A stretch of 64,000 nucleotides of DNA from Candidatus Latescibacterota bacterium (GCA_965217585.1 OZ244561.1:3360001-3424000), one strand, 5' to 3'. Positions 777 through 29,945 are shown, numbered from the stretch's first letter. Notes: a model not told the origin generated them from the letters alone. Made by a program: numbers and translations.

Positions 777-909
777 TCACCCCACACCCGCCAAAGCCTC
801 GCCCAATACCCTCCCTGTCCCTCGCCCTCGGCATTGACCGTAAACAAACACCCGTCGCATTCGTGCCCGGCCATCGCCACACCAGAGCCAATACCTCGCT
901 TTCGTCCAG
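777..909 (-). repeat. Degenerate, internally deleted copy of the 3' end of the 13880-15238 gene
   Basis: 777-878 matches 13880-13982 (shared ACCGTAAACAAACACCCGTCGCA). It then joins via CGCC to a match with ~14169-14203 (LDESEVLALVWR). Confidence 0.9.
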
Positions 910-926
910 TTGTCCGGTCAGCCTCG

Positions 927-2276
927 TCAGGGCGCGACGACCCGCTTGAGTCGATCTTCGAAGTTGTCGCTCATCCTGTATATCCATTTACGCCCACCCG
1001 TGTACTTGACGATTAATCCCAGCCTGTCGAGAGCAAGGAGGTCGGTGCGTGCCGTCTCGTATGTGACGTTGTGGGATCGCCGGTGCCCATCTATGGTGTA
1101 CGAGGTGGCCGGGTGCTTCAGCATGTGCCCCAACAGGGCCACTTGGCGATGGTTTAGCACCAATGCCGCATCAGAACCGCGGAGCATGGCTTCCAGTCTG
1201 CTCGTCTCGCTGGTCTTGCGCGCCAAGTACGTATGCAAGAGGCGGATTGAGTCTAAGATCACCCGCAGGTTGTAGTCGAGAAAATACGTGACGTCGTTGT
1301 CGTCGATCTCGGAGAAGACGTATGCGCGAACGTACTGAGCGGGTGCCTTCTGAATAACCGACGAAATGGAGAGGAACTCGGTCAGCCAATACCCCGATCT
1401 CGCCATAGACCAGTAGAACAGTGCTCTTGCAGTCCGTCCATTTCCGTCTACAAACGGGTGGTCGTAGCCGACCATGAAGTGGAGGAGGATGGCTTTGACG
1501 ACCGGATGCAGGAATTGATCATCCTCGGTGCGTCCATTGGCGAAATCCAAGAGCAGTTCGATGCGGTCGCTGAGCTGACTGGCGTCCGGGGGCGTGTGAA
1601 CGACCTCGCCGTCGCGCTGGTCCACCACAGCGACCACGTCGGTCGGCCGCCGGAGCCGCCCGACTGCATCTGGATCGAGCGTCCCTTCCGTCAGTGTCCT
1701 TTGCAGGTCTATGAGCATGGGGACTGTCAGTTCTTCGTCGATGTTCTCGCGTAGAAACCCCATGCCTAGGTAGTTGTTGACGATCATCCGTTCGCTGTTG
1801 TCGCGTGGCGGGCGGCCTGATCTCAGCAGCTCCTTGGCAACCCGGCGGGTCGTGACGGCACCCTCTAGCTGGCTTGAGGTGATCGCCTCTTCGATCAGAG
1901 AGCTCATCAGATACCGTTCGCGGGAGCCGCTGTTGACCACGTCGCCGTGGGGAACCTCGATTCTCCCGCTCGCGTCCCGGTCCACCTGATGGAGCTGACG
2001 GTACAGGTTCCCCGTGTCGCTGAATGAGAACGGCCTGCCGCGAGTGTCCTTGAATGGCAACTCGTGCCGCGAAACCATGCGCTTGAACTTGACGGCAGTC
2101 CACCAGTCAAGGCTCGCAAACCCTTCCGGCGGGGGCAGGTGACGAAGCTGGTCCCAATGCAGGTACCTGTCCTTGGGCAGGCTGCCAATGTCCGACCTTA
2201 GCAACCTGACCAAGTCATTTGGTTCGTACGACGAGACCAACTCGTCGAAAGGCTTAGGGTTTTTGGGCATTCTCAT
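927..2276 (-). CDS. Fic family protein with C-terminal winged HTH
   Basis: Intact Fic motif HPFVDGNGRTAR; SSQLEG helix; C-terminal LNHRQ...TYETARTDLLAL HTH. Confidence 0.93.
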   Translation of the reverse strand: MRMPKNPKPFDELVSSYEPNDLVRLLRSDIGSLPKDRYLHWDQLRHLPPPEGFASLDWWTAVKFKRMVSRHELPFKDTRGRPFSFSDTGNLYRQLHQVDRDASGRIEVPHGDVVNSGSRERYLMSSLIEEAITSSQLEGAVTTRRVAKELLRSGRPPRDNSERMIVNNYLGMGFLRENIDEELTVPMLIDLQRTLTEGTLDPDAVGRLRRPTDVVAVVDQRDGEVVHTPPDASQLSDRIELLLDFANGRTEDDQFLHPVVKAILLHFMVGYDHPFVDGNGRTARALFYWSMARSGYWLTEFLSISSVIQKAPAQYVRAYVFSEIDDNDVTYFLDYNLRVILDSIRLLHTYLARKTSETSRLEAMLRGSDAALVLNHRQVALLGHMLKHPATSYTIDGHRRSHNVTYETARTDLLALDRLGLIVKYTGGRKWIYRMSDNFEDRLKRVVAP

Positions 2277-2355
2277 GGTTGAAGTCCGCTTCTATCTGAT
2301 GGGGATCGGCGGCGAAATGGCGTGAGTTGCTACTTCAGGATGACGAAATACTAAT

Positions 2356-2386
2356 TAATTACTAATTTATCCAAAATTAGTAATTA
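2356..2386. promoter_or_regulatory. AT-rich inverted repeat, putative operator upstream of fic
   Basis: TAATTACTAATTT-ATCCA-AAATTAGTAATTA, perfect 13-5-13, in the divergent intergenic region. Confidence 0.6.
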
Positions 2387-2422
2387 GCACAAGCGACGGT
2401 GCTGTGTGAGCGCATCGTGTCG

Positions 2423-2518
2423 GGTGAGGAGTTGGAGTTGCCTAGGTTACTCGAAGAGCTTAACGTGGAATTGATGGCGCAGCGTCACAAGACGCCTTTG
2501 TCCATAGAAAAGGAACAT
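2423..2518 (+). repeat. ~90-bp degenerate direct repeat, copy 1
   Basis: Shares GGTTACTC.AAGAGCTTAACGTGGA.TTG.TG.CGCAGCGTCACAAGACGCC with 5564-5653. Confidence 0.88.
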
Positions 2519-2641
2519 GACTGATGTCGATCATAGCGGAAGAGCTGTATTCGCTGAATATGCTCTACTGTCTGTGGGGCGGGATCACGCTCGACTTGGA
2601 GCGGGAACGAATCATTTCGCTCTGAAGCTCGCGCAACTGGG

Positions 2642-5212
2642 ATGGAAAGCATGGTGATGCAAAGGAAGGCAAACGTGGAAAACACGGAGCTTTGGAAACA
2701 AGGTTTCGGGGATGAGGGAAATAGCGAGAACGTAGCGCGGCTAGCGACCTCGCTCCGAAGCATCCGGAGGAACGCAGAGGCGCTAACGTCGAGAATAGCA
2801 GGCAGCTTGCCCGGACTGACGATTCACGACATATCCCACTTGGACGCGCTGTGGGAGGTTGCAAGTACTGTGGCGGGGTGTGACTTTCCGCTTAACCCCT
2901 TGGAGGCGTATGTCTTCGGCGCTTCCGTGCTGCTTCATGATGCTGGCCTCTGCTTCGAAGCGTACTCGGGAGGCCGAGCCGCTCTGCGCGACACGCTGGA
3001 GTGGCGTGACGCACACGGACGACTATCAAGGGGCGACGTACAAAACCTGGCGCAGGAGGCAGACTTCGAGGCCCTCAGGGCATTGCATGCATCGCAGGCG
3101 GCCCGGCTTGCGATCGTACCTTGGGTCGGGGAAGATGGAGAACTTTACCTCATCGACGACCGGGAGTTGCGTGAGAACTATGGCCAACTGATCGGCGATC
3201 TCGCGTCATCGCATCACTGGAATCTGGAACTGGTTGTGCAACGATTTTCAACACGGCGCCCGCCGGCCGCGTTCCTGGACGCTGACTGGGAGGTGGATTC
3301 CCTCAAAGTCGCGTGCATGCTTCGGGTTGCGGACGCGGGCCACATGGACGGCACTCGCGCGCCGTCCTTTCTCCTTAGAATCCTCCAGATGAACTCGCTC
3401 TCAAGAGCGCATTGGATGGCCCAAAACCGTCTCGGGAGACTAACAGTCAGACCCGATGATCCTGTGCAGTTAACGATCGCATCGACGAGCCCTTTCCCTC
3501 GGCACGAGGCGGCGGCTTGGTGGGTTGCCTTTGATCTGGTTGAGACCTTCGACAAGGAACTCCGTCAGTGCAACGACGTGCTTGATACTTCGCCGGGCGG
3601 GCCACGACCTACCTTCGCGGGAAAAAGGGTAGCCGGGGCAGGGCAAGTCAGAGAGCAGGTCAAGTACGTCGAAACGACAGGTTGGGAGCCTACGGATTCA
3701 ACCGTGCATGTGTCGGATGTTTCAGCGTTGGTGACCAAGCTGGGTGGGGAGCAGCTTTACGGGAAAGATGCTGATCGTCTCAATATTGCGTTGCGCGAAC
3801 TGATACAGAACGCCGCAGATGCGATCTGCGTGCGGCGGTCATTGGATAGCGGCGAGTTCGTAGGCCGCATCTTGGTCCGACTTAGAAGAGGGATGGACGG
3901 AGGATGGACTTTACAGGTGGACGACGACGGAGTGGGCATGTCGCAGGCGACGCTCACCACTGATTTGCTGGACTTCGGTCGGAGCTTTTGGGCAAGCGAA
4001 CGGGCAGCCCGGGAGTTTCCTGGAATCCATGCTTCGGGATACACGCCGATCGGCCGTTTCGGGATCGGATTCTTCTCGATCTTCATGGCTGCCAAAAAAG
4101 TCAATGTGTTCTCAAGACGGTTTGACAAGGGACTGGAGGACGCTAGGTGTCTGTCGTTCGACAACGGCATATCTCTTCGGCCCACTCTTAGCTACGACCG
4201 CCCGGATGATTTCGGAATGGATCTGTGCACAAGGGTAGAGTTGGAGCTGAAGCCGGATGTTGTGGAAAACCCTGATCAGATCAGGATACGGTGCAACGTC
4301 CAAGGACACGAGGAGTTCTCAGTGACGTTCGGGGACTACGTAGCCGCTATGGTTGCAGGTATCAACGTTCCGGTGGTGGTGGAGACCGCGAGTGGACGAC
4401 GGAGGGTGCACGAGGGATACCCTCCCGAACCTGAAAAACGGGAGGAATGGCTTGAGGCACTATCGTACGTCAACTCCGGAGTGAACGAAAGGGCGAAGGC
4501 AGGTCTGGCTCGGGCGATTCCCAGACTCAGAGAAATCCGGGATGGAGAGAAATGCTACGGTTTGGCAGCCATCGACGTATTGGGGCAGACAGGGGGCGCT
4601 TTTCTGTCCGGTAAAGCGGTCGGCGGTCTCGTAAATCCACATGGCCGCTATGACGATTCGTTCGTGGGCTTGATCGATCACGTTCCGACGACAGCGCGAC
4701 GGGATGCCGGTGAGATGGCAGCACCTCAGCACAGCATCGACACGTGGATGTCGGGGCAGATGGCTCTACTAAAAAAAGCGAATCTTTCGCAGATCGAGTC
4801 GATATTGGCTAGCTACTCGGTCTGTAGTTTAGGGTATGACCCGAAGGACGTTCTTCAAGGGCTCTTAGTAAATTCCCAAAGTCGAACAGCCTTCATGTCT
4901 ATACACGAGATTACGGACCATCTAAAGAGTGGCCTGCGGCTTGGATTTCTTCTGTCGCCTGCTATCGGCCATCACTTGGACCAGTTTTCGAATAGAGTAA
5001 GGATCTCTGGCATCTTGACCTGCGTTGTGATCACGAACGGGAAACTCAACGACGCGGCCATATCGGCTGGCGTTCCCGAAAACATGAACTCGCTCATCGG
5101 TGTTGTGCATCGAGTGCTGGTTGAGGCAGGTGAAAGTCCAAGATGGTCGATACAGGAAAAAGTCTATAGTAGTACGTTCGGTCAGGGGGACTTACTGGAG
5201 GTTTCAGTGTAG
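2642..5212 (+). CDS. HD-domain (HD-CE-like) fused to an Hsp90-like GHKL ATPase
   Basis: TIHDISH, LLHDAG and RVADAGHMD HD motifs; LYG...LRELIQNAADA, DDGVGM and GRFGIGFFSIFM GHKL motifs. Confidence 0.88.
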   Translation: MESMVMQRKANVENTELWKQGFGDEGNSENVARLATSLRSIRRNAEALTSRIAGSLPGLTIHDISHLDALWEVASTVAGCDFPLNPLEAYVFGASVLLHDAGLCFEAYSGGRAALRDTLEWRDAHGRLSRGDVQNLAQEADFEALRALHASQAARLAIVPWVGEDGELYLIDDRELRENYGQLIGDLASSHHWNLELVVQRFSTRRPPAAFLDADWEVDSLKVACMLRVADAGHMDGTRAPSFLLRILQMNSLSRAHWMAQNRLGRLTVRPDDPVQLTIASTSPFPRHEAAAWWVAFDLVETFDKELRQCNDVLDTSPGGPRPTFAGKRVAGAGQVREQVKYVETTGWEPTDSTVHVSDVSALVTKLGGEQLYGKDADRLNIALRELIQNAADAICVRRSLDSGEFVGRILVRLRRGMDGGWTLQVDDDGVGMSQATLTTDLLDFGRSFWASERAAREFPGIHASGYTPIGRFGIGFFSIFMAAKKVNVFSRRFDKGLEDARCLSFDNGISLRPTLSYDRPDDFGMDLCTRVELELKPDVVENPDQIRIRCNVQGHEEFSVTFGDYVAAMVAGINVPVVVETASGRRRVHEGYPPEPEKREEWLEALSYVNSGVNERAKAGLARAIPRLREIRDGEKCYGLAAIDVLGQTGGAFLSGKAVGGLVNPHGRYDDSFVGLIDHVPTTARRDAGEMAAPQHSIDTWMSGQMALLKKANLSQIESILASYSVCSLGYDPKDVLQGLLVNSQSRTAFMSIHEITDHLKSGLRLGFLLSPAIGHHLDQFSNRVRISGILTCVVITNGKLNDAAISAGVPENMNSLIGVVHRVLVEAGESPRWSIQEKVYSSTFGQGDLLEVSV

Positions 5213-5298
5213 AAGTACCTCGAACGCGGTGTGCTGTCGGCAATGCGGCCCTACTCGCTTGGGTATTTGCCGCCGAGGTCAGCTCATGTGCGGTCTGG

Positions 5299-5503
5299 GC
5301 CGTCGCCATCCGCACCGGGTATCCCAGCGACGGCGTGACGGTGCGGCAAAACAACAAACTGGCCGGCGGCTAGGACGTCTGGCATCTGCACACGCACGTG
5401 ATCCCGCTATAGACCCGCGATCAGAAAATCAGGGGCTGTATGTGCGGGCCGACGATCGCGACCGCGCGCTTACGCGGCTCGCCTGCGCGAGCTTCTAAGG
5501 TAG
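5299..5503 (+). pseudogene. HIT family hydrolase remnant
   Basis: Reads DGVTVRQNNKLAGG*DVWHLHTHVIP, with the HxHxH triad, an in-frame TAG at 5371 and later frameshifts; 5' part missing. Confidence 0.8.
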
Positions 5504-5563
5504 AACGCTGGCTGAAGCGCTCCTAGGCGAGCATCATCGATTCGGAGCGGCTTTCCTTCCTTC

Positions 5564-5653
5564 GGTGAGGAGTTTCCTGGGTTACTCAAAGAGCTTAACG
5601 TGGAGTTGGTGTCGCAGCGTCACAAGACGCCGTTACCCCTAGAAGAGAAGCAT
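5564..5653 (+). repeat. ~90-bp degenerate direct repeat, copy 2
   Basis: Matches 2423-2518; translates as (F)GEEFPGLLKELNVELVSQ. Confidence 0.88.
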
Positions 5654-5658
5654 AACCG

Positions 5659-5859
5659 ATGTCAACCATAACGGAGATTCAGCAGGCGATCATAAGCCTT
5701 TCTAAATCTGACTACGCTCAACTGATGCGCTGGCTCAATGAATACGACTGGGAAGGGTGGGATCAGCAGATCGAAGCGGATTCGGACGACGGGAAGCTGG
5801 ACTTCCTAGTGGATCAGGCCACGGAAGCCAAACGACATGGCACGCTGGAAGGCCTGTAG
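5659..5859 (+). CDS. Small acidic antitoxin-like protein
   Basis: 66 aa, MSTITEIQQAI...WDQQIEAD...GKLDFL; stop overlaps the GTG of the following toxin-like remnant. Confidence 0.72.
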   Translation: MSTITEIQQAIISLSKSDYAQLMRWLNEYDWEGWDQQIEADSDDGKLDFLVDQATEAKRHGTLEGL

Positions 5860-5966
5860 TGCATAGGACGACGCCCGCTTTCCGGTCGCATTTTGAACGG
5901 CTGCCCGAAGTAGCCCAGAGAGTCGCAAGACGCAATTCTGAGCGCCTCAAGGAGAATCCAAGACAT
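5859..5966 (+). pseudogene. Truncated RelE/ParE-like toxin
   Basis: VHRTTPAFRSHFERLPEVAQRVARRNSERLKENPRH; similarity to the family ends at ENPRH, where HPSL-type sequence is expected. Confidence 0.68.
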
Positions 5967-6837: not shown

Positions 6838-7088
6838 TTCCAAGGATGGGAAACGGTCCTTAGTGGCCACGGCCGTGGGCGCTGGCGGGATGCCGCTGAA
6901 AGCGTTGCCCCGACGTACTACGTTGATGGACACTCATTCATTAGTTGGTGTGCTTAACCATTCAAGGTGCCGAGCCAGGGCAATCGCATTATAAGTTGAT
7001 TTTTACCATGCGGTTATGTTCCTTTTTCCCTTTCTATGGAACTTAGGTTCCAGTCCTCCCTTTTCCCTATTGCTTGGAGTGTGTCTGC

Positions 7089-8233
7089 ATGTCCTCATCA
7101 TCCTTGGGGTTGCTGGATTATTTGGCCGATGTTCCCGACCCGCGTATTGAGCGTTGTCGGGCGCATCGCTTGATTGATATCCTTATGATTGCGGTGTGCG
7201 GCTCCATTTGTGGGGCCGACAACTGGGTGGCGATCGCCGAATTTGGCCGGGCTAAAGCCGACTGGCTTAAGACCTTTCTAGCCTTGCCTAACGGCATCCC
7301 CTCGCATGATACCTTCGGTCGCGTGTTTGCCCGTCTTTCGCCTTGGCATTTCCAAGACTGTTTTACCGCTTGGGTGCAATCGCTGACACTCCCGTTGGCC
7401 GACGAGGGCGAGATCGTGCCGCTGGATGGCAAGACGCTGCGCCGCTCCTACGATACGGGTTCGGGCCAAGCCGCCATCCACATGGTGCATGCTTGGGCGG
7501 TAAAAAATCGGCTGGTCTTGGGGCAATTCCATGGTGAAGAAGCCTTGGAAGAAATTGCGATCATTCCCGAGTTATTGCGCGTGTTAGATCTCAAAGGCTG
7601 CCTGGTCACCACCGATGCGTTGGGGTGTCATAAGAGCACGGCCGAGCAGGTCGTCGAACAAGAGGCTGACTATGTGCTGGCCGTCAAGGCCAATCAACCC
7701 AAACTCCACGCCCATCTCCAACAGCTCTTTGACCGCTCCGACTCGAAACACCACGCCGATCCTACCGTAGATTATTGGTTTACTCAAGACCAAAACCACG
7801 GACGTTGCGAAACGCGGCACTACTGGACTACGAACCAGATTGAGACCTTTGCCGGACATGCCCACTGGCCGGGTTTACGCCTGTTCGGTATGGTCGAGGC
7901 GATCCGGCAAAGCGGCGATACGGTCTCGGTCGAACGACGCTACTATATCTCCACGCTGGACAACAACGCCCAACGATTGGGACAGGCCGTGCGCGGTCAT
8001 TGGGCCATTGAAAATTCATTACACTGGATCCTCGATGTCGTCCCCGCGTACGCGGGGATCAGTCCCGCATACGCCGGGGGCATGGCCCCGAAAATATGGC
8101 CGTTATACGCCACATCGCGCTCAATCTACTCCAGCAAGACAAAACGACCAAAGCCGGCATGCAAACCAAGCGGCTCAAGGCCGGGTGGGACCACAAATAT
8201 CTGGCTAACCTGTTGGCACATGGACAGTTATAA
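7089..8233 (+). pseudogene. ISAs1 transposase, frameshifted near the 3' end
   Basis: DPR, IPSHDTFGRVF, LDGKTLR, DALGC and RGHWAIENSLHWILDV motifs. The true C-terminus DQSRIRRGHGPENMAVIRHIALNLL...KAGWD is in another frame after 8057. Confidence 0.9.
8041..8058. repeat. 18-bp perfect palindrome TCCCCGCGTACGCGGGGA
   Basis: Lies exactly at the transposase frameshift; same 16-bp core as 53294-53311. Confidence 0.85.
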
Positions 8234-8262
8234 TGCGATTGCCCTGGGTGCCGAGCTAGGTA

Positions 8263-8751
8263 ATGAACACAATCAATAAATGGGCTGAGCGGGTATACGG
8301 AGAGACCGACTTCGGGCGGAGTGTGGCGACGTCGGTCTCTGGTGTCGCCGGACTGCTAGTTTACCTAGTGTTCTCCGACTGGGTGATCGCGGCATTTTCG
8401 TCAATCATTACGTTCCCGATAGTACGCCTTACCTCGATGGGGCTGCACGAGCGTGCGACTCGCCGAGCGAAGGGACGCTTGGCGCGTGAAGACGCCAAGC
8501 GGGAATACGACCAACTAAGCGACGATGAGAAGCAAGTGGTGTTGGCCTTCGTCGAGGCGGGTGGTTGCGTTCTCACATGGGGGCAGGTGAATGCGCTATC
8601 TCTTTCCACATCGAGTGTAGAGTCGCTGCTCCAGAGAAAACTCCTTTGGCCTTCAGTGACAGTCGACGGCCGTGAGACATTTGTCCTCGACCCGGCAATC
8701 TTTGACGTGGGCCAAGATCGCAAACGTGCGATTTCACCTCGTGCCGTCTAG
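8263..8751 (+). CDS. Two-TM membrane protein with C-terminal wHTH-like region (SieB-like architecture)
   Basis: Hydrophobic segments at about residues 20-55, then LSDDEKQVVLAFV...VESLLQRKLL. Confidence 0.55.
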   Translation: MNTINKWAERVYGETDFGRSVATSVSGVAGLLVYLVFSDWVIAAFSSIITFPIVRLTSMGLHERATRRAKGRLAREDAKREYDQLSDDEKQVVLAFVEAGGCVLTWGQVNALSLSTSSVESLLQRKLLWPSVTVDGRETFVLDPAIFDVGQDRKRAISPRAV

Positions 8752-9715: not shown

Positions 9716-9900
9716 AACAGCGAAGGCCTCCAACTCACCCCACCCCCGCTAAAGCCTCGCCCAATACCCGCACCTGCTCCGCGTCCTCGGCATTGACCGT
9801 AAACAAACACCCGTCGCACCCGTGCCCAGCCACTGCCGCATCCAAAGCCCGCACCAGTTCGGGGGACGCTCCCGCTGAAAGGCTAACCGTACGGGGCACC
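9716..9900 (-). repeat. Degenerate copy of the 3' end and downstream flank of the 13880-15238 gene
   Basis: Colinear with ~13861-14046 (AACAGC.AAG.C.TCCAACTCACCCCAC...ACCGTAAACAAACACCCGTCGCACCC...CGCTCCCGCTGA). Confidence 0.92.
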
Positions 9901-10205
9901 CTGCCGAAGGACCCGCAAACTACCTTTAGGGAGCTTGCCTTACCCCTTGCGCGTGTTCAGCGCATTGACGATAACCTCAATAAGGAGCCTAATTGTAGAT
10001 GGGGCGCGCTTGGGAAATGGGGCTCGGATCGGTCTGCGGTATTTTTTATCGGCATTTTGATGGAAGGCGTATTGCGACGCTAAGACCCTAGAGATGTCGT
10101 CACAATATAAATCTGAGATCAACCTCAGCGTCGAACGGGAGAGGTCGAAATGATTGCGACGGGCGGATATCGTGTAGCATGGCAGTGTATACGCCTTAGA
10201 CAACT

Positions 10206-10838
10206 ATGACCGTCACAGTGATGAGGGCGGCGACGCGCGATCATAGAAAAGCAACCCTGGACGAGAGCGCCATCCGCCGAGCGCTCCACGGCAAATGCCT
10301 CCGGCATCACCGTAGGCATCCGGACACCATCGTGGTCGACGAGCTAGGACTCGCTCATGCCCGGTGCCGTATTGATATCGCTGTGATCAATTGCAGCATT
10401 CATGGCTACGAGATAAAGAGCGATCTCGACACACTCATGCGGCTACCGCAGCAACTCGAATTCTATGCAATGACATTGCAGAAGCTGACTTTGGTTGTTG
10501 GCACGCGGCACCTTGAGGCGGTCGCAACAATGCTGCCAAGCTGGGCCGGTCTTGTGGAGGTCAAAACCGGCCCTCGCGGCGGGATCTCATTCGATCACAT
10601 TCGCCCGGCACGGGCGAACCCGGACATCGATCCATTTATGTTCGTTCATCTGCTCTGGCGTGGTGAAGCCGAAGAGGCACTGCAGGCCTTGGGTGCGCCG
10701 CGCGGCTCGCGTCGTGCCACGCGCAAGGAACTCTATGCCGGTCTGGTTGAAGCCTTGAGCACGGCCGAGTTGACGGCACTGATCAAACGCGCTATGCGGC
10801 AGCGGCAAGGTTGGCGAGCTCTTCCGCCACCAGCGTAA
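10206..10838 (+). CDS. sce7726-family protein (PD-(D/E)XK-like)
   Basis: VVDELGL...RIDIAVIN...HGYEIKSDLDTLMRLPQQ...LLWRGEA pattern. Confidence 0.82.
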   Translation: MTVTVMRAATRDHRKATLDESAIRRALHGKCLRHHRRHPDTIVVDELGLAHARCRIDIAVINCSIHGYEIKSDLDTLMRLPQQLEFYAMTLQKLTLVVGTRHLEAVATMLPSWAGLVEVKTGPRGGISFDHIRPARANPDIDPFMFVHLLWRGEAEEALQALGAPRGSRRATRKELYAGLVEALSTAELTALIKRAMRQRQGWRALPPPA

Positions 10839-11883
10839 TGTGGTGGTTGATGGCAACTTCTTTCCAACGTCCGAGAGTGCTAGGACCCTTCTTCTTAGCG
10901 GCGCAATCGCTGATATAGGCATCGCCCCCCGAGAACTCTTGGCCGCGAAAGTTGAATTTTGAATCGCACACGATCGCTTGACAATGGATATACATCTGGT
11001 CCCGATCATCGCGAAACGAACCGCCTTTGCGCGTCGCCCATGTCGTTTCGGTCGTGTAGATTATCTTCCCTGCCGGTTTGAGCTTACGCATGTCTTTGGC
11101 CTCGAAATTTGGGTGGACGATCGTGTAGTCGCCATAGACCGGACGCCGTATGCTGCCGGATAAATTCATGAGCAGTGTTTGGTAGAAGAGCCAATCATGC
11201 CGCGGAATCTCATCCGTGCCCCTAGATATATCGGAAAAAGCTTCAGGGATCGCGGTGCTGACAAGGACGAAGTTGCGAAAGACCATGAGGTCGCCTAGCC
11301 GTGGCATGGCAGCGATCAGTGCCGTGGCGAATACGTCGTAGGGCTCGAAATTTGGGGATCCTAGATCGATGATTAGATCGATTTCGTTGAGTTCGACTTG
11401 CAAGTCCTTTGCCAGCGCAACTAACTTGGCTTGCGGGCTGATGGCCATCAGATCTTCGAGGCGGACGAGGATCGCGGCCCCCTGTCCATCTCGCGCGACC
11501 GCCCGCGCAGCCGCGGCGATCGTCTCGGGATCGGTGGCCAAAGGCAGGGCGGGAATGGCCTTCGCATTGTTCGGCCTGAGGCCGTTGAAGACATAGTCGA
11601 AGACGTGGCTGCCGTCATCCATGCGCCCGTTGGCAATCGCCTCATTGAGCGCGATCCAAGCGGGACGCTGTCCCCACTTCTTGTGATAGCGCATGATGAA
11701 GGGATACACATGCTCATCGACTGTCTTTTTCGGCTGCCGCTGTTCGAAGTCGTACTCTACATCGGGGATCGTGATTAATGGCACAATCTGGTCTTTGACT
11801 GTTTGCTCGAGTCTCTCTAAGGCTTGGTACTCGGCCTGCCGCCAGCGTAGTGCCGGCACATAAGTGTCTTCACTCAACTGCAT
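10792..11883 (-). CDS. Beta-family protein (T4 beta-like)
   Basis: YVPALRWRQAEYQAL N-terminus; YGDYTIVHP, IIYTT, FSGGDAYI and WKEVAINHHIT motifs. ATG 11883 overlaps the upstream gene. Confidence 0.82.
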   Translation of the reverse strand: MQLSEDTYVPALRWRQAEYQALERLEQTVKDQIVPLITIPDVEYDFEQRQPKKTVDEHVYPFIMRYHKKWGQRPAWIALNEAIANGRMDDGSHVFDYVFNGLRPNNAKAIPALPLATDPETIAAAARAVARDGQGAAILVRLEDLMAISPQAKLVALAKDLQVELNEIDLIIDLGSPNFEPYDVFATALIAAMPRLGDLMVFRNFVLVSTAIPEAFSDISRGTDEIPRHDWLFYQTLLMNLSGSIRRPVYGDYTIVHPNFEAKDMRKLKPAGKIIYTTETTWATRKGGSFRDDRDQMYIHCQAIVCDSKFNFRGQEFSGGDAYISDCAAKKKGPSTLGRWKEVAINHHITLVAEELANLAAAA

Positions 11884-13147
11884 CGTCGGGCTCTTCAAAT
11901 TGGGGACCCACAGTGCCTTGACCGACCAGATCATTGAGGATGGTGTAGTCGGCTTGCTCTTTCCTGATCCGACCGGCTATGATGCTCGGATCGATCCCTA
12001 GCGTCCCGGCGTCGATTTGCACCGCTTCTTCCGAGAGCGCAAAACGCGATAAGCACTTACCCCAGGCATCGAGGGGTATCAGCGAGTCGAGGGCGAATCG
12101 GTCGGCGTCGGTCTCGACCTTGTCGCTTTCCCGAGTGCCCTCTTCGTCGAAGAAATCGTAGTGCAGGCCGTCCATAAGATGCAGGAACACATGGCCGAGT
12201 TCGTGGAACAGCACAAACCAGAAATTATCCAGCCGATCATAGCGAAGAGTGAGCCCAATAACGGGCCGTCCAGTATCGCCCATCATAGCGGCCCCATCGA
12301 GATAGGTGCCTGGCAGATGCTTCTCCGTGATTAGTACAATGCCCTTTTCCGCGAGGAGATAACGAGCGCGACGAGGCCCGTCCTTACGACGAGTCAGGGC
12401 TACCAACTTCCCGATCCAGCGATCGTCGAGTTCGAATGCGGGGATCCCGTGCCGGCTGATGGCCCCGCGCGCCCGATCCAGTACTCGTGCTTGCCAGGCG
12501 AGGAGGGCGTATTCGTTGGGGACGGTGCCGCTATGCATCTTTTTCCGGTGGAATGCTGTCGCAAACTGCGGTCCAGCTGCGGTGAGGAAATATTCGCGCA
12601 CTTTCTCGATCGGATCGCCGCCACGCGGCACCGAAAACCATTTCCGTTTGATCATGGCTTTGAAGGGAAATTGCCGCCAGACAACGTCTTCGACAGTTTT
12701 CCAAGAGAACACAGAACCGCGCGTTTCTTGATCTGCTTCGAACAGTTCTTCGATGTGAACGCCGAGTAGGCGCGAGATTTCGATCAACTTCGCGAGGCTG
12801 GCACCCATATAGTCGGAGGCCTCGTAGCGTTGAATCTGTTGTGGCTTGAGACTGAGCGCTTTCGCAAGATCGGTCTGGCTCATGCCAGAGGCGATGCGCG
12901 CCTGAATCAGGATCGAGGGCAAGCTCTCCAGCGCGAATGATTTAGCGAAGGTAATTTGCCCCGCCTTAAGCAAGTCATAATGGGCAAGCTCGGCTTCGAT
13001 CTCTTCGATTTGGCTCTTGAGCGCATCGATCTCCGCGGTCTTCAGCCATTCCTGATCGGATTCTCGCATTTGAGTGACACTGAGGGCATCCTTCAGTTTG
13101 GTGAGCTCGCCGTTTGAGATGCGATATTGCTTGTCGCTATAGATCAT
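11870..13147 (-). CDS. XRE HTH plus ImmA/IrrE metallopeptidase
   Basis: LIQARIASGMSQTDLAKAL...QQIQRYE HTH; TYLDGAA and LRYDRLDNFWFVLFHELGH (HEXXH); ETDADRFA. Confidence 0.92.
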   Translation of the reverse strand: MIYSDKQYRISNGELTKLKDALSVTQMRESDQEWLKTAEIDALKSQIEEIEAELAHYDLLKAGQITFAKSFALESLPSILIQARIASGMSQTDLAKALSLKPQQIQRYEASDYMGASLAKLIEISRLLGVHIEELFEADQETRGSVFSWKTVEDVVWRQFPFKAMIKRKWFSVPRGGDPIEKVREYFLTAAGPQFATAFHRKKMHSGTVPNEYALLAWQARVLDRARGAISRHGIPAFELDDRWIGKLVALTRRKDGPRRARYLLAEKGIVLITEKHLPGTYLDGAAMMGDTGRPVIGLTLRYDRLDNFWFVLFHELGHVFLHLMDGLHYDFFDEEGTRESDKVETDADRFALDSLIPLDAWGKCLSRFALSEEAVQIDAGTLGIDPSIIAGRIRKEQADYTILNDLVGQGTVGPQFEEPDDAVE

Positions 13148-13623: not shown

Positions 13624-13879
13624 ATCTACAACAATAATGTTGTAATCGTGGTTTGTCAATAGCGGGTGCGGGGTGATCTAGGCGCTAACGTAGGTTTTGA
13701 TTTATTCTGACTGAAAATGACGGAGCGAACGCATCGTTGAACATGTTGGGAATGAGAGATTCCGTCGTACGGAGGCGCTCCTAGGCGAAGTACGGATTCG
13801 GGGAGGGGCCATCCCTTGCTGGCTGCGGCCCACTCGGACGTTCGGGGGCTACTGTATCATAACAGCTAAGACTTCCAAC

Positions 13880-17331: not shown

Positions 17332-17592
17332 TCACTTCGACTCCGATAGGCGGGCGAAGACTTCGCCTGCCGTCATGTCCTCAATGCACAGCCGCTTGTC
17401 CCGCGCCTTGTGTCCCCGCACAATGTGCACCCTGCCCTTGGCGACCTTGAGCCGCTTCGCCAGCAGGGCCACTACTGCGTCGTTGGCCTTGCCGCCCTCC
17501 GGGGCTGCTGTTACCCGCGCTGTTATCTTGTCGCCGTCAATCTCGACGCTGTTGCGCCCGGCCTTTGGCTGCACCCTGATGTTGAATTCCAT
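17332..17592 (-). CDS. yggU: DUF167/YggU family protein
   Basis: RVQPKA...VTAAPEGGKANDAVVALLA...GHKARDK. Confidence 0.88.
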   Translation of the reverse strand: MEFNIRVQPKAGRNSVEIDGDKITARVTAAPEGGKANDAVVALLAKRLKVAKGRVHIVRGHKARDKRLCIEDMTAGEVFARLSESK

Positions 17593-17603
17593 GCGCTGCG
17601 CTT

Positions 17604-17640
17604 GCTAAATCGACGCGAACCAGTCCTTGTCCACTTCCAC
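17604..17640 (-). repeat. 37-bp perfect direct repeat of the mrr 3' end, left copy
   Basis: GCTAAATCGACGCGAACCAGTCCTTGTCCACTTCCAC, identical to 20116-20152. Confidence 0.95.
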
Positions 17641-17673
17641 TAAGGACGACGGAACCAAGTATTCACCGTATCC

Positions 17674-18814: not shown

Positions 18815-20090
18815 TAACTCACTTGGACTATTATTCGATGCGAATAGCGAGAAATCACGTATAGCTTTGTGTTTGGATTTTGGATTACTATGTGCGTGAG
18901 GAGTATCTTCGCTAAGTGAATCGAATAGCGTCTGTTGGCTATGATTATCTTGGCGATGTGCATCTTTGTTTACGAAATCGCCCATAGCCTGAAGTCCGCT
19001 ATCAAAGCGCTTTAGTATCGTCTTTATCGCTTCAATGCTATTATCTGCACCTATCCAATTGCGTTGCATTTCGTCCGCAACAGCAAGGGTTGTCCCAGAA
19101 CCGGCAAAACAATCAAGCACCATATCACCGGGATTAGAAGAAGCAGCAATAATTCTTCTAATTAACCCTGGATTCTTTTCAGTTGGGTAGCCAGTAATTT
19201 TTATATTCTGGTTATGTGCATCACGGAACTCCAACCATATGTCCTGAACACTAACTCCAGGATGTTCATCAAGATAAACCTTTCTTCTTGGATTTCCGTT
19301 CTTTGACCAGAATATTTCTCCCCTCGCGTCCATTTCATCTAGCCTCTTAGGCGTGTACTGCCAGTGTTTGCCCGGGGGAGGCATTTCCCCCCTCCATGGT
19401 TTACCAGTTTCCCCCTTGCGTGTTCCCGGGGCATGGACAGGGACTTTCATATACTTCCGTCCAGTACCCTCTTCGACGTACTGATATTTTTTTTCTTTCT
19501 TCAGATAAAGGGACAGTTTGTTTATTCCATATATACTTATCTGTTTTGGTATAAAAAAGTACGAAATCTGCAATATTGCCGTATGTTTTTCGCGTATAGT
19601 TTTTAGGATTACATTTCTTCCGAACAATCATATTTCTGTAGTTTTCTGGTCCAAATACTTCATCCATGATAATTTTTATTTCGAAAATCATTTTTTCATC
19701 TAAGTGTAGGTAAATCGATCCTTTATTCGACAACAATTTATGAAGCAAAACAATTCTTTTACGTAAAAATTCAACGAATGGAGCACCACTCAAGGTGTCT
19801 TCATATGCTCGTGATTGCTTTCGGGAAACAAATTGACTTTGAGTGGCAAATGGAGGGTCTATGTATATGAGATGTACCTTTCCGCATACATTAGGATCTG
19901 TCACAAGGACGCGAAGGACATCGAAATTATCGCCGAAATACAATCGCTTATGAGATGGATTGGAATGGAGCTTATCAAAAGGGACTATGGAACCATTGAA
20001 TATTTCTTCCTCAGTCGCTTTACCTCTATAATCGAGATGCACTCCACTATCTAAGAGAGTATTATTTTTTTTGGGAATACCGATTGCCAT
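18797..20090 (-). pseudogene. Beta-class amino-DNA methyltransferase split by a frameshift
   Basis: IYIDPPF in the first frame; YPTEKN and VLDCFAGSGTT in the second. Frames switch at an A8 tract (19487-19494). Visibly AT-rich. Confidence 0.88.
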
Positions 20091-20115
20091 ATCTAATATC
20101 CTTTCCTTCAAACTC

Positions 20116-20152
20116 GCTAAATCGACGCGAACCAGTCCTTGTCCACTTCCAC
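20116..20152 (-). repeat. 37-bp direct repeat, right copy (functional mrr 3' end)
   Basis: Identical to 17604-17640; encodes VEVDKDWFASI*. Confidence 0.95.
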
Positions 20153-21031
20153 GACCTCGACCATCTTTGCGGACACGCCGAGTTTGAGTTCCTTCATTTT
20201 ATCCATTAGCAATTCGCCGTCAATCAAGTCTATCGGCGTCGCGCCATCCCGGGTGGCTTCTCGTTGCGCCTCTATTGTGAAGCGACCCGTTGTCAAGATA
20301 AGGCCCTTTTCCGCCCGTCCTACCATCGCGCCGCGAAAGTCCCTGACCACGCTTGCGCCAACGCTGCCGCTGTAGCGCTTGCACTGGAACAGTACGGGAA
20401 AGCTAATCAGCCCCGCGAGACGGATTATGCCATGCCCGTCGATTCCGCCGTCGCTCGATTTTCCCGTGACCTCAACCTCGATAAAGCCCGATTCCCGCAA
20501 GAGCCTTTGGCACAAGCGTTCGAATGCGTCGGGAGGGATGTTGCGGAGGGTGTCGAGCAAATCCTCACGCCAAGAAGCGGTTTCATCTGCGGGGTCTTCG
20601 GCTGAGTTTTCGATTTCTTCGGCTAGGGTGCCTTCCTCAGTTTTCGTTTTTTTGCGAGATCGCTTCTGTTTCAGGTATCGCTGATAAGAATCAACAACTT
20701 CTTTGGAATCAACACGTTGTGTCTCCTGCCCTTTAGCAGTAAGAGACCATACGCCTCTCTCCGAATTATCAATTAAGCCGTAGTTTTTAAGGAAGGTTCT
20801 CGCAAAGCTCAATCGGTACTCTAGCTCTGTCATACGTTCTGCTTGCCCGCTTTTTTTTCCTCGCGCGCAAGGTATTTGAGTAATAGCAGCAGACAGGCCC
20901 ATATCTTCAATTACTTGATTGGCGATTTCGCGCTTGGAAGCACTGCCTCCAAGCGCGTGGAGCGCGGTAAGTGTAGGATTTAGTAGATCAGACTCCCTCG
21001 GGACGTTATCTACATTGACGTTGTCAGTCAT
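20117..21031 (-). CDS. mrr: Mrr type IV restriction endonuclease
   Basis: Mrr N-terminal wHTH (ALHALGGSA...GVWSLT) and catalytic FERLC, DGGIDG, QCKRY, VRDFRGA, IDLIDG. Confidence 0.93.
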   Translation of the reverse strand: MTDNVNVDNVPRESDLLNPTLTALHALGGSASKREIANQVIEDMGLSAAITQIPCARGKKSGQAERMTELEYRLSFARTFLKNYGLIDNSERGVWSLTAKGQETQRVDSKEVVDSYQRYLKQKRSRKKTKTEEGTLAEEIENSAEDPADETASWREDLLDTLRNIPPDAFERLCQRLLRESGFIEVEVTGKSSDGGIDGHGIIRLAGLISFPVLFQCKRYSGSVGASVVRDFRGAMVGRAEKGLILTTGRFTIEAQREATRDGATPIDLIDGELLMDKMKELKLGVSAKMVEVVEVDKDWFASI

Positions 21032-21952: not shown

Positions 21953-23883
<1,931 letters not shown>

Positions 23884-26897: not shown

Positions 26898-26981
26898 TAG
26901 GGTCATGGATTTACCCGTTGCCCTGCCAATTGTGACTCTATGTCTGAATTGGTAGTGCCTCTTAAATAAAGGAGGAAAGTC

Positions 26982-27851
26982 ATGAAAGACTATTCGCACA
27001 TTCAGAAGCCGGACTTGGGCTATCGCTATGAGTTTGCCACCGATGAACTCGACGCGATGGACGAGTGCTTGGAGGCGCACGGCTTCGCGGTGATCAAAGA
27101 CGTGCTGCCGCCGGAGATCGTCGCCAAGCTCAAGCAGGCGGTGTGGGACGGCACGGACCCGGAGCACACGTTGCAACCGGGCGAGAGCCGCACGCGGCAC
27201 GCTTGGATCGAGTCCGGCCCGGGCGCTTGGGAAGTGCTCGACTACGAGCCTTTCATGGACATTCACCGGCACCTGATCGGCACCGACGAACTGACGCTCC
27301 ACCGCTCGGCCGCCATCATCCGCCGGACTGGCTCGGCTCCCGTGGGGTGGCATACCGATTGGTGCGGCTACTCGACCGAGATCAAGCATTCGGGCGACGT
27401 CCTCAACCGCGGACTGTGGCCGTCGGGCAAGTGGTTCTACCTGACCGGCTCGCGGCCCGAGCACGGCGGCCTGTGCGTCATTGAGGATTCCCACGTCGAA
27501 GATTGGGAGGGGCCGGAGGGATTCAGCATGACGGCCGACCGGCGCTCCTTCTACCCGGAGGGCACGGAGGAACGCGGCTACAACGGCTTCGACATCCCCG
27601 GCCTCGTCCCCCTCTTCACCAACGGCGGCGACATGATCGTCTTCGCCCATCGCACGTATCACGGCGCGTTCCCCAACCGAATTGAAGAAACGCGCCTCTC
27701 TTGCGGCATCGGCTTCCGTCCCCGCAACCACCGCATCGACATTCCCTGGGAAATCCCCGAGGGAGGCCAGTGGTTTTTGGCCAACCTACCCGAGCATTTG
27801 CGCCGCTATACGGACGGGTACACGAGCATCAATTTGGAGTGGCAGGGCTGA
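26982..27851 (+). CDS. PhyH-family dioxygenase
   Basis: HGFAVIKDVL, GWHTD, IEDSH and GDMIVFAHRTYHGA; AAGGAGG RBS. Confidence 0.85.
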   Translation: MKDYSHIQKPDLGYRYEFATDELDAMDECLEAHGFAVIKDVLPPEIVAKLKQAVWDGTDPEHTLQPGESRTRHAWIESGPGAWEVLDYEPFMDIHRHLIGTDELTLHRSAAIIRRTGSAPVGWHTDWCGYSTEIKHSGDVLNRGLWPSGKWFYLTGSRPEHGGLCVIEDSHVEDWEGPEGFSMTADRRSFYPEGTEERGYNGFDIPGLVPLFTNGGDMIVFAHRTYHGAFPNRIEETRLSCGIGFRPRNHRIDIPWEIPEGGQWFLANLPEHLRRYTDGYTSINLEWQG

Positions 27852-27861
27852 CTGACCAGGA

Positions 27862-27906
27862 CTAATCCTCGCGGCGCGGGCGGACCACAGTTTCGCCGAC
27901 CGGTTC
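27862..27906 (-). repeat. 45-bp direct copy of the 3' end of the 29109-29945 gene
   Basis: 43/45 identical to 29109-29153, including the stop codon. Confidence 0.93.
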
Positions 27907-27926
27907 CTGAAAGAAGAGAGATCGCC

Positions 27927-29069
27927 ATGAAGGATACTCGTCCCCGACTGCTCTTCAATTCCCGTGGGCGCTTGGGCGTATTTGACCTGAATGATTCGCG
28001 GATATGGTATCCTCGCCCGGACGTTCCGGGCATGGTCAGTTGGAGCTGGGGGCCGGTCTTCGAAGATCGTCGCCGGGTGATCGTGTCCGGTTGCGAACCC
28101 GGCAAGGCCTGGGAAGGCAACGTAAGGGTCCATCTGTGGATATATGACCTAGATGAAAACCGGCTGCTGGGGGAGATCGCCCGCAAAAACAGGCCCGCCC
28201 CCTTCATGGTGTGCAGTCATATCCTGCCGGGGGAAGATCGCCTCGTGATGAACCCGATCATCGACGGGAAACAGCGCGTCTGGACCATGGATCTGGATGG
28301 TTCCGAGCCACGGGAAATCACGCGCGTCGAAGACGGGTTTGTTTATTGCGTCCAGATCAGCCCGGACGGCCAGAAGATCGCGTACCACGCGACCATGCTG
28401 TCCGGCCGGGACAGTTACTGCGTTTTCGTCTCGGACCTGGACGGAGGCAACCGGGTGGAAGTCGCCTCGGCCCTGGGTCACTTGTACTTCGGACCCATGT
28501 GGTCGCCGGACGGAAAATGGCTGATCTACCAAGACTGCCACTATCCCGACGATCCGGGCCACGACTGGGCGGACCTTTGCCTGGGCAGCAGAGATGGGTC
28601 GATAAACCGGAAGGTCACGGAGGGCCAGCGCCAGTGGTTCGCCACGTCCTACGGCGACCCGGAAACCCGGGGTGGCGGTTCCAACATGGCCCAGTGGACG
28701 CCGGACGGAAAAAGGGTAACCTACACCCGGGCAGAGCCCGGTTCTCAAACGGCTTGGCCGTACCAGGCGGAACGGCCGGATACCGATCATTTCAACCGGG
28801 ACTACTACCCGGAGGACGCCCGCGGCGGCACCGCCATATGTCTGCTCGATCCCTTTACGGGCGAGGAGACGGAGTTTATACCCTGCGAATCTCGCGTCTG
28901 GAATTTCCGTGCGGTCTGGTCGCCGGACGGCTCTATGTTTGCCTTCTGCCGCGCCGAGGTTGGTTCACCGAGCAGCCTGTGGCTGGTCAATGCCGACGGC
29001 AGTGCCCCGCGCATGTTGACCGACGGATACGAACACCAGGGTGCGGATCACCCGCTATGGGTGGTGTGA
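27927..29069 (+). CDS. TolB-like (PD40) beta-propeller protein
   Basis: Repeats ISPDGQKIAY, WSPDGKWLIY, WTPDGKRVTY and WSPDGSMFAF; no obvious signal peptide. Confidence 0.85.
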   Translation: MKDTRPRLLFNSRGRLGVFDLNDSRIWYPRPDVPGMVSWSWGPVFEDRRRVIVSGCEPGKAWEGNVRVHLWIYDLDENRLLGEIARKNRPAPFMVCSHILPGEDRLVMNPIIDGKQRVWTMDLDGSEPREITRVEDGFVYCVQISPDGQKIAYHATMLSGRDSYCVFVSDLDGGNRVEVASALGHLYFGPMWSPDGKWLIYQDCHYPDDPGHDWADLCLGSRDGSINRKVTEGQRQWFATSYGDPETRGGGSNMAQWTPDGKRVTYTRAEPGSQTAWPYQAERPDTDHFNRDYYPEDARGGTAICLLDPFTGEETEFIPCESRVWNFRAVWSPDGSMFAFCRAEVGSPSSLWLVNADGSAPRMLTDGYEHQGADHPLWVV

Positions 29070-29108
29070 CGGGAGCTAGTCCCTCCCTCTGTAGTGAACT
29101 GGCTAGGG

Positions 29109-29945
29109 CTAATCCTCGCGGCGCGGGCGGACCACGGTTTCGCCGTCCGGTTCGATGAGGGGGTGATGGTAGATGTAGGGCGGTTCGAGCACTGCCTGCT
29201 GCGCTGCGGTCAATTCCGACACCCATTCTGGTTGGCTGACCTCGTATGTGCCGCCGTCGTAGTGCAGGTACTTCGGCGTGTACCGGTAGAGCAGGGCGCG
29301 GCGGTCGTGGTCCGCCTGCCACGGCAGGGTGCCGTGCAAGGTGTTTTCGCTAAAGATGACCATGTCGCCGGCCTTCAGGGGCACTTGGTAAACAACCTCT
29401 TGGTGCTCCTCCCAAGTAGTGATCTTCGCAGGGCAAGAAAAGTTTGCCTTGTGGCTGCCCGGGATGACGCAGAGGCCGCCGTCGCCGGGATTCTGATCGT
29501 GTAAAGTGTACTGGACGACCAGAAGGCCACAGCGCATTTGGCCGTTGGAGTACGCGTAGAAGCGGGAGCCATTGAAGAGGACGTTGGTGGTGCCGTGGAT
29601 GCGCAGGCCTTCGATTCCTTTAGGACCGGTAATCATTAACGGCTCGTGGTCGAGCTTCCAGCCGCGTCCGTGCAGGGTGTCGAGGTAGGGCAGGAGCTTG
29701 CGGTGGGCGAGCAGGTCGCGGAATGGCTGGCAATGGGGCTGCTCCCAGGTGAGCATGTCGGTGAAAAGGCCGCGCTTGTTCGTTCCAGCCATGTTGCCGC
29801 TGGGGTCGCCGATTGGGTCTTCGCGGCGCTGGTCCCAGTTGGCGTCGAAAGCGTCGTTGAGCGCTTTGACTTCGCCTTGCGAGAGGAACTCGCGGACGAC
29901 GGTGAAGCCCTGCAGGTCGAAGAGGAATTTTTCGGTGTCGTTCAT
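29109..29945 (-). CDS. PhyH-family dioxygenase
   Basis: FLFDLQGF, VIPGSHKAN and KAGDMVIFSENTLHGTLPW; paralog of 21067-21855. Confidence 0.9.
   Translation of the reverse strand: MNDTEKFLFDLQGFTVVREFLSQGEVKALNDAFDANWDQRREDPIGDPSGNMAGTNKRGLFTDMLTWEQPHCQPFRDLLAHRKLLPYLDTLHGRGWKLDHEPLMITGPKGIEGLRIHGTTNVLFNGSRFYAYSNGQMRCGLLVVQYTLHDQNPGDGGLCVIPGSHKANFSCPAKITTWEEHQEVVYQVPLKAGDMVIFSENTLHGTLPWQADHDRRALLYRYTPKYLHYDGGTYEVSQPEWVSELTAAQQAVLEPPYIYHHPLIEPDGETVVRPRRED

Follow-up and report, generated by a model that had tools for sequence, protein, structure and literature searches.

Probable insertions with long target duplication at gene 3' ends in a sponge-associated Candidatus Latescibacterota genome

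In a stretch of 64,000 nucleotides (nt) from a Candidatus Latescibacterota genome, referred to here as the window, three genes have their own 3' end repeated beyond a block of other genes: mrr, one of two PhyH genes, and a gene for a 472-amino-acid (aa) protein. Single-copy empty sites in sister species show that these events are insertions. Such insertions are frequent genome-wide, are biased to gene 3' ends, stack at favoured ends, and have later been trimmed by deletion and by invasion of insertion sequences (IS). The three loci and at least three further events in the window are probably separate cases of 'insertion with long target duplication'. An earlier note on this DNA had read the three repeats as traces of a general, gene-preserving acquisition route; the insertions do keep the flanking gene, but the kind of event is already known and is not a new route (Furuta, Abe & Kobayashi 2010, NAR 38:2428, PMC2853133).

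The window covers positions 3360001-3424000 of a genome assembled as one 7.32-Mb contig without N (genome GC 59.5%). Its source, a sponge-associated metagenome-assembled genome (MAG), is labelled G000, and G001, G002 and so on are related genomes. At least 30 other species genomes of the genus, about 12 of them in a single contig, have 85-96% DNA identity to G000; the close relatives are likewise Candidatus Latescibacterota MAGs, several out of sponge bins. Families were assigned by Pfam, NCBIfam and PADLOC. The three repeats seen earlier are present and are far beyond chance by BLAST. Because the source is a MAG and repeats of 40-56 bp are of k-mer size, false joins in the assembly might be suspected, but we give this explanation next to no credence: the contig is unbroken, the same repeat-cargo junctions are found in independent assemblies (G001 at the DAO and GmrSD loci, six genomes at mrr), and contigs of other runs cross 20111|20112.

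Duplicated gene ends at three loci

Two convergent genes of the Pfam family PhyH, PhyH-A (26982-27851, + strand) and PhyH-B (29109-29945, - strand), are separated by a 1191-bp insert (27907-29097) that consists of one PD40 beta-propeller gene (27927-29069, + strand; Pfam PD40) with 20 and 28 nt to spare. The live repeat at the end of PhyH-B, 29098-29153, recurs at 27851-27906 (- strand) with 51/56 matching positions (E 5e-15), and the 43/45 match from 27862 observed earlier holds within it. The distal copy contains the last 45 nt of PhyH-B and a 10-nt spacer, the duplication having its exact limits at the PhyH-A stop codon on one side and 45 nt inside PhyH-B on the other. When 40 other genomes were searched, the tail-to-tail PhyH genes were joined over one 56-bp copy in nine of them as judged by coordinates, and the empty site was confirmed by sequence in G001, G002 and G006. 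Among the matches listed, the PD40 insert was not covered in any of the 40 genomes.

The site is not simply empty or full. A hairpin-bearing stub of 40-90 nt lies between the PhyH genes in G011, G013, G019 and G005 (by sequence) and in G022 (by coordinates); those of G013, G011 and G005 (L004, L006 and L008) are 80-90 nt long and have a hairpin with an 8-bp stem. The first 13 letters of the stub are identical to those of the G000 insert, and it closes in a decayed piece of the repeat, indicating that the PhyH insertion predates G000 and that the gene was later deleted in those lines. Inserts thus shrink to small hairpin-bearing scars. Both G000 copies of the repeat carry states absent from the relatives, and the distal, non-coding copy has the derived state at 3/5 differences.

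At the second locus the target is mrr (20117-21031, - strand), which encodes a type IV restriction enzyme (Pfam Mrr_N and Mrr_cat; PADLOC mREase_IV), and its neighbour in the empty allele is yggU (17332-17592, - strand; Pfam DUF167). The live repeat, 20113-20152, matches the distal copy at 17601-17640 (- strand; the last 36 nt of mrr plus 4 nt) at 39/40 positions, with a BLAST E of 8e-12 within a 50-kb chunk, and the previously noted 37/37 match from 17604 is borne out. Between the copies are a Type II DNA methyltransferase gene (18797-20111, - strand; Pfam N6_N4_Mtase in both halves, PADLOC MTase_II 2.9e-136), which is frameshifted to two open reading frames (ORFs) in G000, and an IS630-like element (17671-18817, - strand; Pfam DDE_3 and HTH_33). 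The cargo has a GC content of 44% (40% without the IS) versus 59% for the window.

The empty mrr-yggU allele, with a single 40-bp copy, was found in G001, G003 and G041. In G002, G012, G013, G014, G021 and G022 a larger structure lies between yggU and mrr, and it is partial in G024 and G042. The cassette of these six relatives consists of a gene of 291-315 aa, whose stop codon overlaps the start of an intact Type II methyltransferase gene of 437-444 aa, and is bounded by the two copies of a 126-137-bp duplication (about 98 bp in G012) that stretches from 36 nt before the end of mrr across the spacer to ~80 nt into yggU. The 291-315-aa gene (L058:1832-2779 in G012) has no Pfam, NCBIfam or PADLOC family. 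It has more than 3000 homologues at E of 1e-5 or lower, the best 120 at 70-91% identity, which span several phyla judging by the few names given. Its structural model (pLDDT 79.8) matches the restriction enzyme BstEII (Foldseek E 9e-25, 49% identity), and with the methyltransferase it forms an intact BstEII-like Type II restriction-modification (R-M) cassette in the relatives.

G000 has lost the restriction gene as well as that portion of the mrr-side copy that derives from yggU, the methyltransferase starts 5 nt past the mrr stop codon, and the methyltransferase stop codon is created at the junction itself; the G000 insert is a decayed derivative of the larger cassette. The age series that the earlier note saw in the divergence of the repeats therefore stands only in part, since the short mrr repeat is a trimmed derivative of the 126-137-bp duplication. 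The IS630-like element has three other identical copies in G000 (784998, 1245657 and 5587498), is absent from the same cassette in six relatives, and is polymorphic, the IS-free joint 17672|18812 being present in contigs of three runs. A contig of run X23 contains two additional letters at position 19487, where the two methyltransferase ORFs overlap, and the methyltransferase frame of that strain may be unbroken. Contigs of X20 and X23 contain a joint 17594 -> 21066 that leads from yggU to the PhyH gene at 21067 without mrr and the cargo. The same holds for G011, and the genus can do without mrr. A diversity-generating retroelement was rejected as the source of the repeats, because no reverse transcriptase family occurs in the cargos and the repeat mismatches (T/C at mrr; A/T, C/T, C/T, A/G and C/T at PhyH) are not adenine-specific.

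The third target, the 472-aa gene (13880-15298, - strand), has full-length relatives at 85-94% identity, and its protein has no Pfam, NCBIfam or PADLOC family. Its live repeat, 13861-14027, is the last 148 nt of the gene plus 19 nt downstream. The next copy outward (R2; 9716-9882, - strand) matches it at 84% over 167 nt (E 4e-47). The oldest remnant in the window (R3; 777-909, - strand) has an internal deletion, with 777-878 at 86% over 103 nt to 13880-13982 and 866-909 at 89% to 14159-14203. A fourth copy is found 16 kb left of the window (genome 3343753-3343840; 82% over 89 nt) directly after an MR_MLE gene, in the same place as in G044 and G019. The earlier note had assigned 9716-9900 and 777-909 to a 'TIM-barrel' gene. 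Both are real copies, but both are remnants of the gene whose intact end is 13861-14027, and the ORF beside 777-909 is an unrelated Fic-domain gene (927-2276, - strand; Pfam Fic 1.2e-15, PADLOC SoFic 1.3e-34). All three host genes are intact ORFs, as had been claimed.

Going outward from the 472-aa gene, the order is the PD-Lambda-2-like set, copy 2, a block of DUF6615, IS, HepT-like, HD-CE/HATPase and Fic genes, copy 3, a ~14-kb element with a tyrosine recombinase gene, the real HIT-ADH genes and copy 4. The fourth copy and the 472-aa gene are ~30 kb apart in G000; in relatives the 472-aa gene is convergent with the HIT-ADH block, with stop codons ~50 nt apart in G021. The youngest cargo (9883-13860) contains PD-Lambda-2-like genes (10792-11934 and 11870-13147), a DUF6932 gene (13144-13659) and an sce7726-family gene (10206-10838), and is found in G020, whereas G011 and others lack it. 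The PD-Lambda-2-like set, 10792-13659, corresponds to a Beta protein, a helix-turn-helix (HTH) and M78 peptidase protein, and DUF6932, with the sce7726-family gene adjoining. The Fic gene adjoins the 472-aa gene in eight relatives, at a distance of 16 nt in G041 and G014, and positions 747-880 are absent in G012 and G044.

Within the older cargo there is another insertion with a single gene, HD-CE with HATPase (2642-5212, + strand; Pfam HD-CE 1.3e-48 and HATPase_c_3), bounded by a 107-bp duplication (2434-2540 and 5569-5675, 83%). Its right copy lies within 5298-5965, where the 3' end of the HIT gene and the DNA beyond it are duplicated over 680 bp (87% to genome 3345741-3346420). G011 has one copy of the 107-bp repeat, without the HD-CE gene, the IS and the youngest cargo. 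This IS (6976-8247, + strand; IS4/IS5-type, with a DDE_Tnp_1 transposase gene at 7074-8279 and DDE_Tnp_1_assoc, by Pfam) has at least eight other copies in G000 at 90-100%, one of which sits inside another repeat-bounded cargo (gene 3194334). Since both IS elements are absent at these sites in relatives, they are later arrivals and not the cause of the insertions.

Four nested copies of one gene end, which hosts different cargo in different species, and a tyrosine recombinase gene that ends 550 nt left of the oldest copy in the window could point, mainly at this locus, to site-specific integration by a tyrosine recombinase from an attP carrying the gene end, with tandem accretion of islands that lack an integrase. 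The gene (genome 3359222-3360226; 3' part at 1-226, + strand; Pfam Phage_integrase 3.4e-15) lies at the right end of the ~14-kb element (genome 3346400-3360226, L103), which extends from the HIT gene to about position 200 and also contains an IS, a split GmrSD, a 1001-aa DEAD helicase and two FlgD-Ig/T9SS-tailed proteins; no att site was found for it. G012 and G044, however, carry 200-746 without the recombinase, and its closest homologue (85%, in G022) is at another locus, 2.8 Mb from the 472-aa gene copy of that genome; the recombinase is therefore not tied to the repeats and belongs to a separate element rather than to the repeat-bounded cargos. Nor is there a fixed core, as the coding part differs from copy to copy (60, 148 and 324 nt), and so does the end, which lies 0, 19 or 28 nt past the stop codon of the gene.

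No integrase or resolvase family was found by Pfam among 34 ORFs of the window, 96 cargo ORFs at 28 loci of G000 and 120 ORFs in the islands of 12 relatives (Phage_integrase, 0/120), in agreement with the earlier note, although the cargos do contain two nested transposase genes. The genome has five tyrosine recombinase genes for at least 34 unrelated targets. We consider site-specific integration decidedly improbable, and the trans-acting recombinase of relaxed specificity that had been suggested earlier fits neither these numbers nor the variable repeat boundaries.

Frequency, cargo and breakpoints across the genome

Genome-wide, 5134 genes were called with a simple codon-usage gene caller, and self-BLAST of overlapping 50-kb chunks gave 2860 repeat pairs, of which 1349 were direct repeats of 25-400 bp with a spacing of 150 bp to 20 kb. 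Before further filtering, the 3' end recurred downstream in uncalled sequence for 46 genes, against 20, 24 and 13 in the mirror classes. A second filter removed genes with an internal match outside themselves, as in paralogue arrays, and repeats with fewer than 20 coding nt; the PhyH locus itself was lost in this filter and is outside the count. The remaining 34 genes compare with 16 whose 3' end recurs upstream, 17 whose 5' end recurs upstream and 11 whose 5' end recurs downstream (binomial p 0.008-0.012 pairwise and 0.0003 against all three), and the enrichment of 3' ends that the earlier note had proposed to look for is present. Repeats of the 34 genes are 29-333 bp long and 78-100% identical. 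Insert size ranges from 382 to 16540 nt genome-wide; the inserts of the window measure 1191, 2472, 3028 and 3978 nt and ~8.8 kb.

The cargo is mostly defence, toxin-antitoxin or R-M genes, and also metabolic ones. Among the 96 cargo ORFs assigned by Pfam, the former include GmrSD, Type I and Type III-like R-M, TIR, PIN/HicB, DUF5615/DUF433, MNT, Uma2, HNH, three dynamins and AAA+PDDEXK, and the ordinary genes are DAO, polysaccharide deacetylase, GFO, SusCD, ankyrin and MR_MLE. The median cargo GC is 0.557 versus 0.595 for the genome. All-against-all BLAST of the cargos detected no common element or shared ends, only nested IS copies and paralogue arrays.

Several paralogue arrays (0.81, 3.65 and 6.82-6.85 Mb) produce the same signal and were filtered out for this reason. 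One could accordingly regard all the downstream copies as leftovers of mostly deleted tandem or paralogous genes, with no insertion route at all, and locus 2921931, where a gene and its small partner are in two copies in G013, looks like such a case. As a general account this is highly unlikely, because single-copy sites in relatives join the flanks exactly over one repeat, the cargo is unrelated to the host gene, and the low GC content of the mrr cargo stands apart from that of the window. The empty alleles that the earlier note had called for are found in relatives at both PhyH and mrr-yggU.

Other loci were compared in five relatives. The site after gene 159723 is occupied by DAO, a FAD oxidoreductase gene (genome 161069-162259, L076), in G000 and G001 and is empty, with one 49-bp copy, in G012. 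In G002, G011, G012 and G013 the DAO gene is at another locus, which is empty in G000 (2340171-2340179); there the insert again begins right past a stop codon, in a short duplication of 9-12 nt. The alignment between the two places covers only the ORF and ~13 nt, and a resident DAO gene seems to have moved between loci. In G000 and G001 the two 49-bp copies agree in two states without counterpart in the empty-site genomes, indicating that the resident target was duplicated. Locus 363851 is empty with one 38-bp copy in G001, but the same repeat-cargo junction is present in G011, so that the empty state can be a secondary loss. At locus 4992228 four relatives have 2-2.9 kb extra between the gene and the cargo gene, without the distal copy; at locus 6618467 the cargo is 5.6 kb in G011, of which 507 nt are left in G000; and at locus 285820 the site is occupied in G012 by 4 kb of different DNA.

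The gene-attached copy of the repeat ends 0-7 nt past the stop codon in 21/34 genes, where random placement would give 6.2 +/- 2.1, and this pinning was not seen in the controls. It holds for 10/12 pairs with at least 93% identity (2.9 expected), 9/14 at 89-93% and 5/14 below 89%. The far junction lies within 8 nt of the stop codon of a cargo ORF in 7/41 pairs versus 1.4 expected, a count that used 60-aa ORFs in any frame, some of them spurious. Slow pruning predicts something other than the strongest pinning in the most similar pairs and is thus weakened as the sole cause, although pruning does occur at mrr.

Replication direction, hairpins and a target motif do not explain the pinning. The targets are 15 co-directional and 19 head-on in a hand count with origin and terminus placed by GC skew, which gives no bias. 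The folding energy of the 50 nt after the distal copy is -11.8 versus -10.7 kcal/mol for 1500 random gene ends (p 0.43), and a hairpin or terminator past the stop codon was rejected as the cause. Read-through expression was rejected as well, the first cargo ORF being co-oriented in 13/21 pinned loci without clear bias. A search for a motif common to the targets found none, with 14 pairs among the 35 targets sharing an 8-mer versus 10.0 +/- 3.4 after shuffling, as expected from the earlier remark that the targets have no obvious consensus.

The pinning can be produced by secondary trimming, as at mrr, and would be expected from illegitimate recombination with one anchor if donor and recipient were alike only within the ORF. 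An improbable alternative is that the end of translation itself sets one breakpoint, the DNA just past the stop codon being favoured for breakage or joining and the second breakpoint lying 30-330 bp inside the gene; an R-loop that starts after ribosomes leave the transcript would, for instance, be a cause of this kind.

Origin and spread of the duplications

Read as insertion with long target duplication, each event would place one gene or a block of several at the junction of two neighbouring genes, leave a 30-330-bp stretch over the junction on both sides of the inserted DNA and bring in no recombinase with the cargo. Because the duplicated stretch holds the last codons and the stop codon of one flank, both neighbours stay whole. 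The first duplication would most likely be an illegitimate joining, at the level of microhomology, of incoming or relocated DNA, either at a staggered break or through one homologous gene anchor and one illegitimate joint. Homologous recombination in the duplicated target could then carry the repeat-cargo-repeat module from one strain or species to another, either by crossovers in the repeats or as a circle that is excised between them and integrates again Campbell-style; the module could also be lost in this way.

Evidence on the second step comes from the mrr cassette, which is found at the same site in at least seven species. The methyltransferase identity in the seven occupied genomes is 93.7-97.5% (mean 95.5%), compared with means of 91.5% for the left flank and 87.3% for mrr, and the methyltransferase is the most similar segment in 21/21 pairs. 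This is in line with a spread of the cassette through recombination at the duplicated target; the history of this one cassette is different from that of its flanks.

Such a cassette, more alike than its flanks in every pair, might also suggest that every event, the first included, is a RecA-dependent single crossover of the Campbell type by a small circle that already carries the gene end. The spacer haplotypes of the two mrr copies are mixed between genomes, and the shortest repeat is 29 bp; a length of ~29 bp is close to the minimum for RecA recombination. A life cycle of this kind is proposed by Furuta et al. (PMC2853133). Applied to all events, however, the proposal needs cargo joined beforehand to the gene end and cannot account for at least 30 different targets. 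At DAO and PhyH both copies bear the substitutions of the lineage's own allele, the DAO cargo resembles the genome's own gene relocated, and no circle junction appears in contigs among the joints listed, which is weak evidence. We regard this explanation as somewhat unlikely. The Campbell-type integration named in the earlier note suits the spread of the R-M cassette between species and leaves the first duplication unexplained.

Several points weigh against insertion with long target duplication as set out above. No event was caught at the stage where the duplication arises, and microhomology could not be established at the junctions. In the contigs of four public runs, which drop rare forms, no precise cargo-loss or circle joint at mrr or PhyH was present among the 15 of 27 joints listed. 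The simple gene caller is less exact at 5' ends than at stop codons, which weakens the 5' controls, and the count of 34 is not pure, since at least locus 2921931 has the look of a small two-gene module that was duplicated in tandem and then decayed, not of an insertion. The higher identity of the methyltransferase may partly reflect stronger constraint, in a comparison that pooled synonymous and other sites. Furthermore, the two 128-bp copies within a genome differ at 9-28 positions and the nearest relative of a copy is usually a copy in another genome, a phylogeny that suits either old duplication or shuffling and is too mixed to decide between them. Finally, Ku was not found in G000, a 94.6% complete genome, and this speaks against a staggered break joined by Ku/LigD.

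ComEC is present in G000. Its presence, with no Ku detected, fits uptake-linked recombination better than Ku-dependent end joining and proves neither. A further contig joint, 9832 -> 14169, is most simply explained by a contig of the 777-909 copy placed on its relatives. The direct repeat 22458-22513 / 23310-23368 in the ABC-F gene is due to its pair of ABC domains, a region where many unrelated contigs are stacked.

Comparison with known systems

Insertion with long target duplication of R-M systems was reportedly described by Nobusato et al. in 2000. In Furuta et al. (PMC2853133), where it is described for R-M genes, the insert is smaller than 20 kb and contains both R and M genes, the presence of both being the search criterion, and direct repeats longer than 30 bp (46-423 bp) both align to one empty-site sequence. 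That text reports no mobility gene, calls the mechanism not known, and notes that some repeats overlap a gene 3' end; in two H. influenzae repeats of 46 bp, just 15 and 2 bp lie in the gene. In comparison with this account, our inserts are below 20 kb, and repeats with an empty site are found at PhyH (56 bp), mrr (40 bp; 126-137 bp in six relatives), HD-CE (107 bp), DAO (49 bp) and locus 363851 (38 bp), with no integrase, transposase or phage that accounts for the insertion.

The mrr locus of the relatives, with a BstEII-like gene and a Type II methyltransferase gene between 126-137-bp repeats, is on the same account a textbook case of Type II R and M; in G000 the R gene is gone. The PhyH, HD-CE and DAO cargos lack R and M genes and extend the class beyond R-M. 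Most of the cargo here is in fact not R-M (toxin-antitoxin, GmrSD, PD-Lambda-2-like, dynamins, DAO, GFO, PD40, SusCD, ankyrin). Other differences from that paper are the ~34 genes affected in one genome, the stacks up to four deep at one gene end, and the ending of the repeat at the stop codon far above chance.

Our loci share features with other systems. The duplicated target that flanks the insert is like a transposon target-site duplication, whereas the repeats are 29-333 bp long and variable, the cargos have no shared ends, and no responsible transposase is present. Integrative elements such as ICESt1/CIME at fda and e14 at icd are said to target a gene 3' end, to restore the gene from attP and to accrete in tandem. 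Similar to them, our loci have direct repeats of a gene 3' end, an intact gene and several islands in a row; unlike them, they have no integrase in the repeat-bounded cargo, no constant core and many unrelated targets. By eye the repeats are copies of the neighbouring gene and not attC-like palindromes as in integron cassettes, although no attC or IntI search was made.

Homology-facilitated illegitimate recombination in natural transformation was reportedly described by de Vries and Wackernagel in 2002. One anchor and one illegitimate joint would place the donor's gene end beside the cargo and the recipient's beyond it, and the homology would end at the conserved end of the ORF; the presence of ComEC is in line with this. 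However, this process is not shown to leave duplications and needs a donor with the cargo already behind the same gene, and at two of our loci both copies look like the resident allele.

This case adds the genome-wide count with controls, the allele series of one R-M cassette over many species, the four-deep stack at one gene end, the likely relocation of a resident gene and the stop-codon pinning. Insertion with long target duplication has so far been documented for a handful of R-M systems, with its mechanism open. This genus shows the same sites empty, occupied, re-occupied and decayed across about 12 complete genomes at 85-96% identity, and how often the event happens, which cargo it carries and whether the cargo later travels by homologous recombination become approachable by comparison alone. 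The event explains how a defence island can grow at a gene end with no integrase involved. Should the pinning hold in young events, it may offer a genuine lead on the mechanism, and if the end of translation does set the breakpoint, there would be a general capture route, pinned to the stop codon, that brings in foreign defence genes and also relocates resident genes such as DAO.

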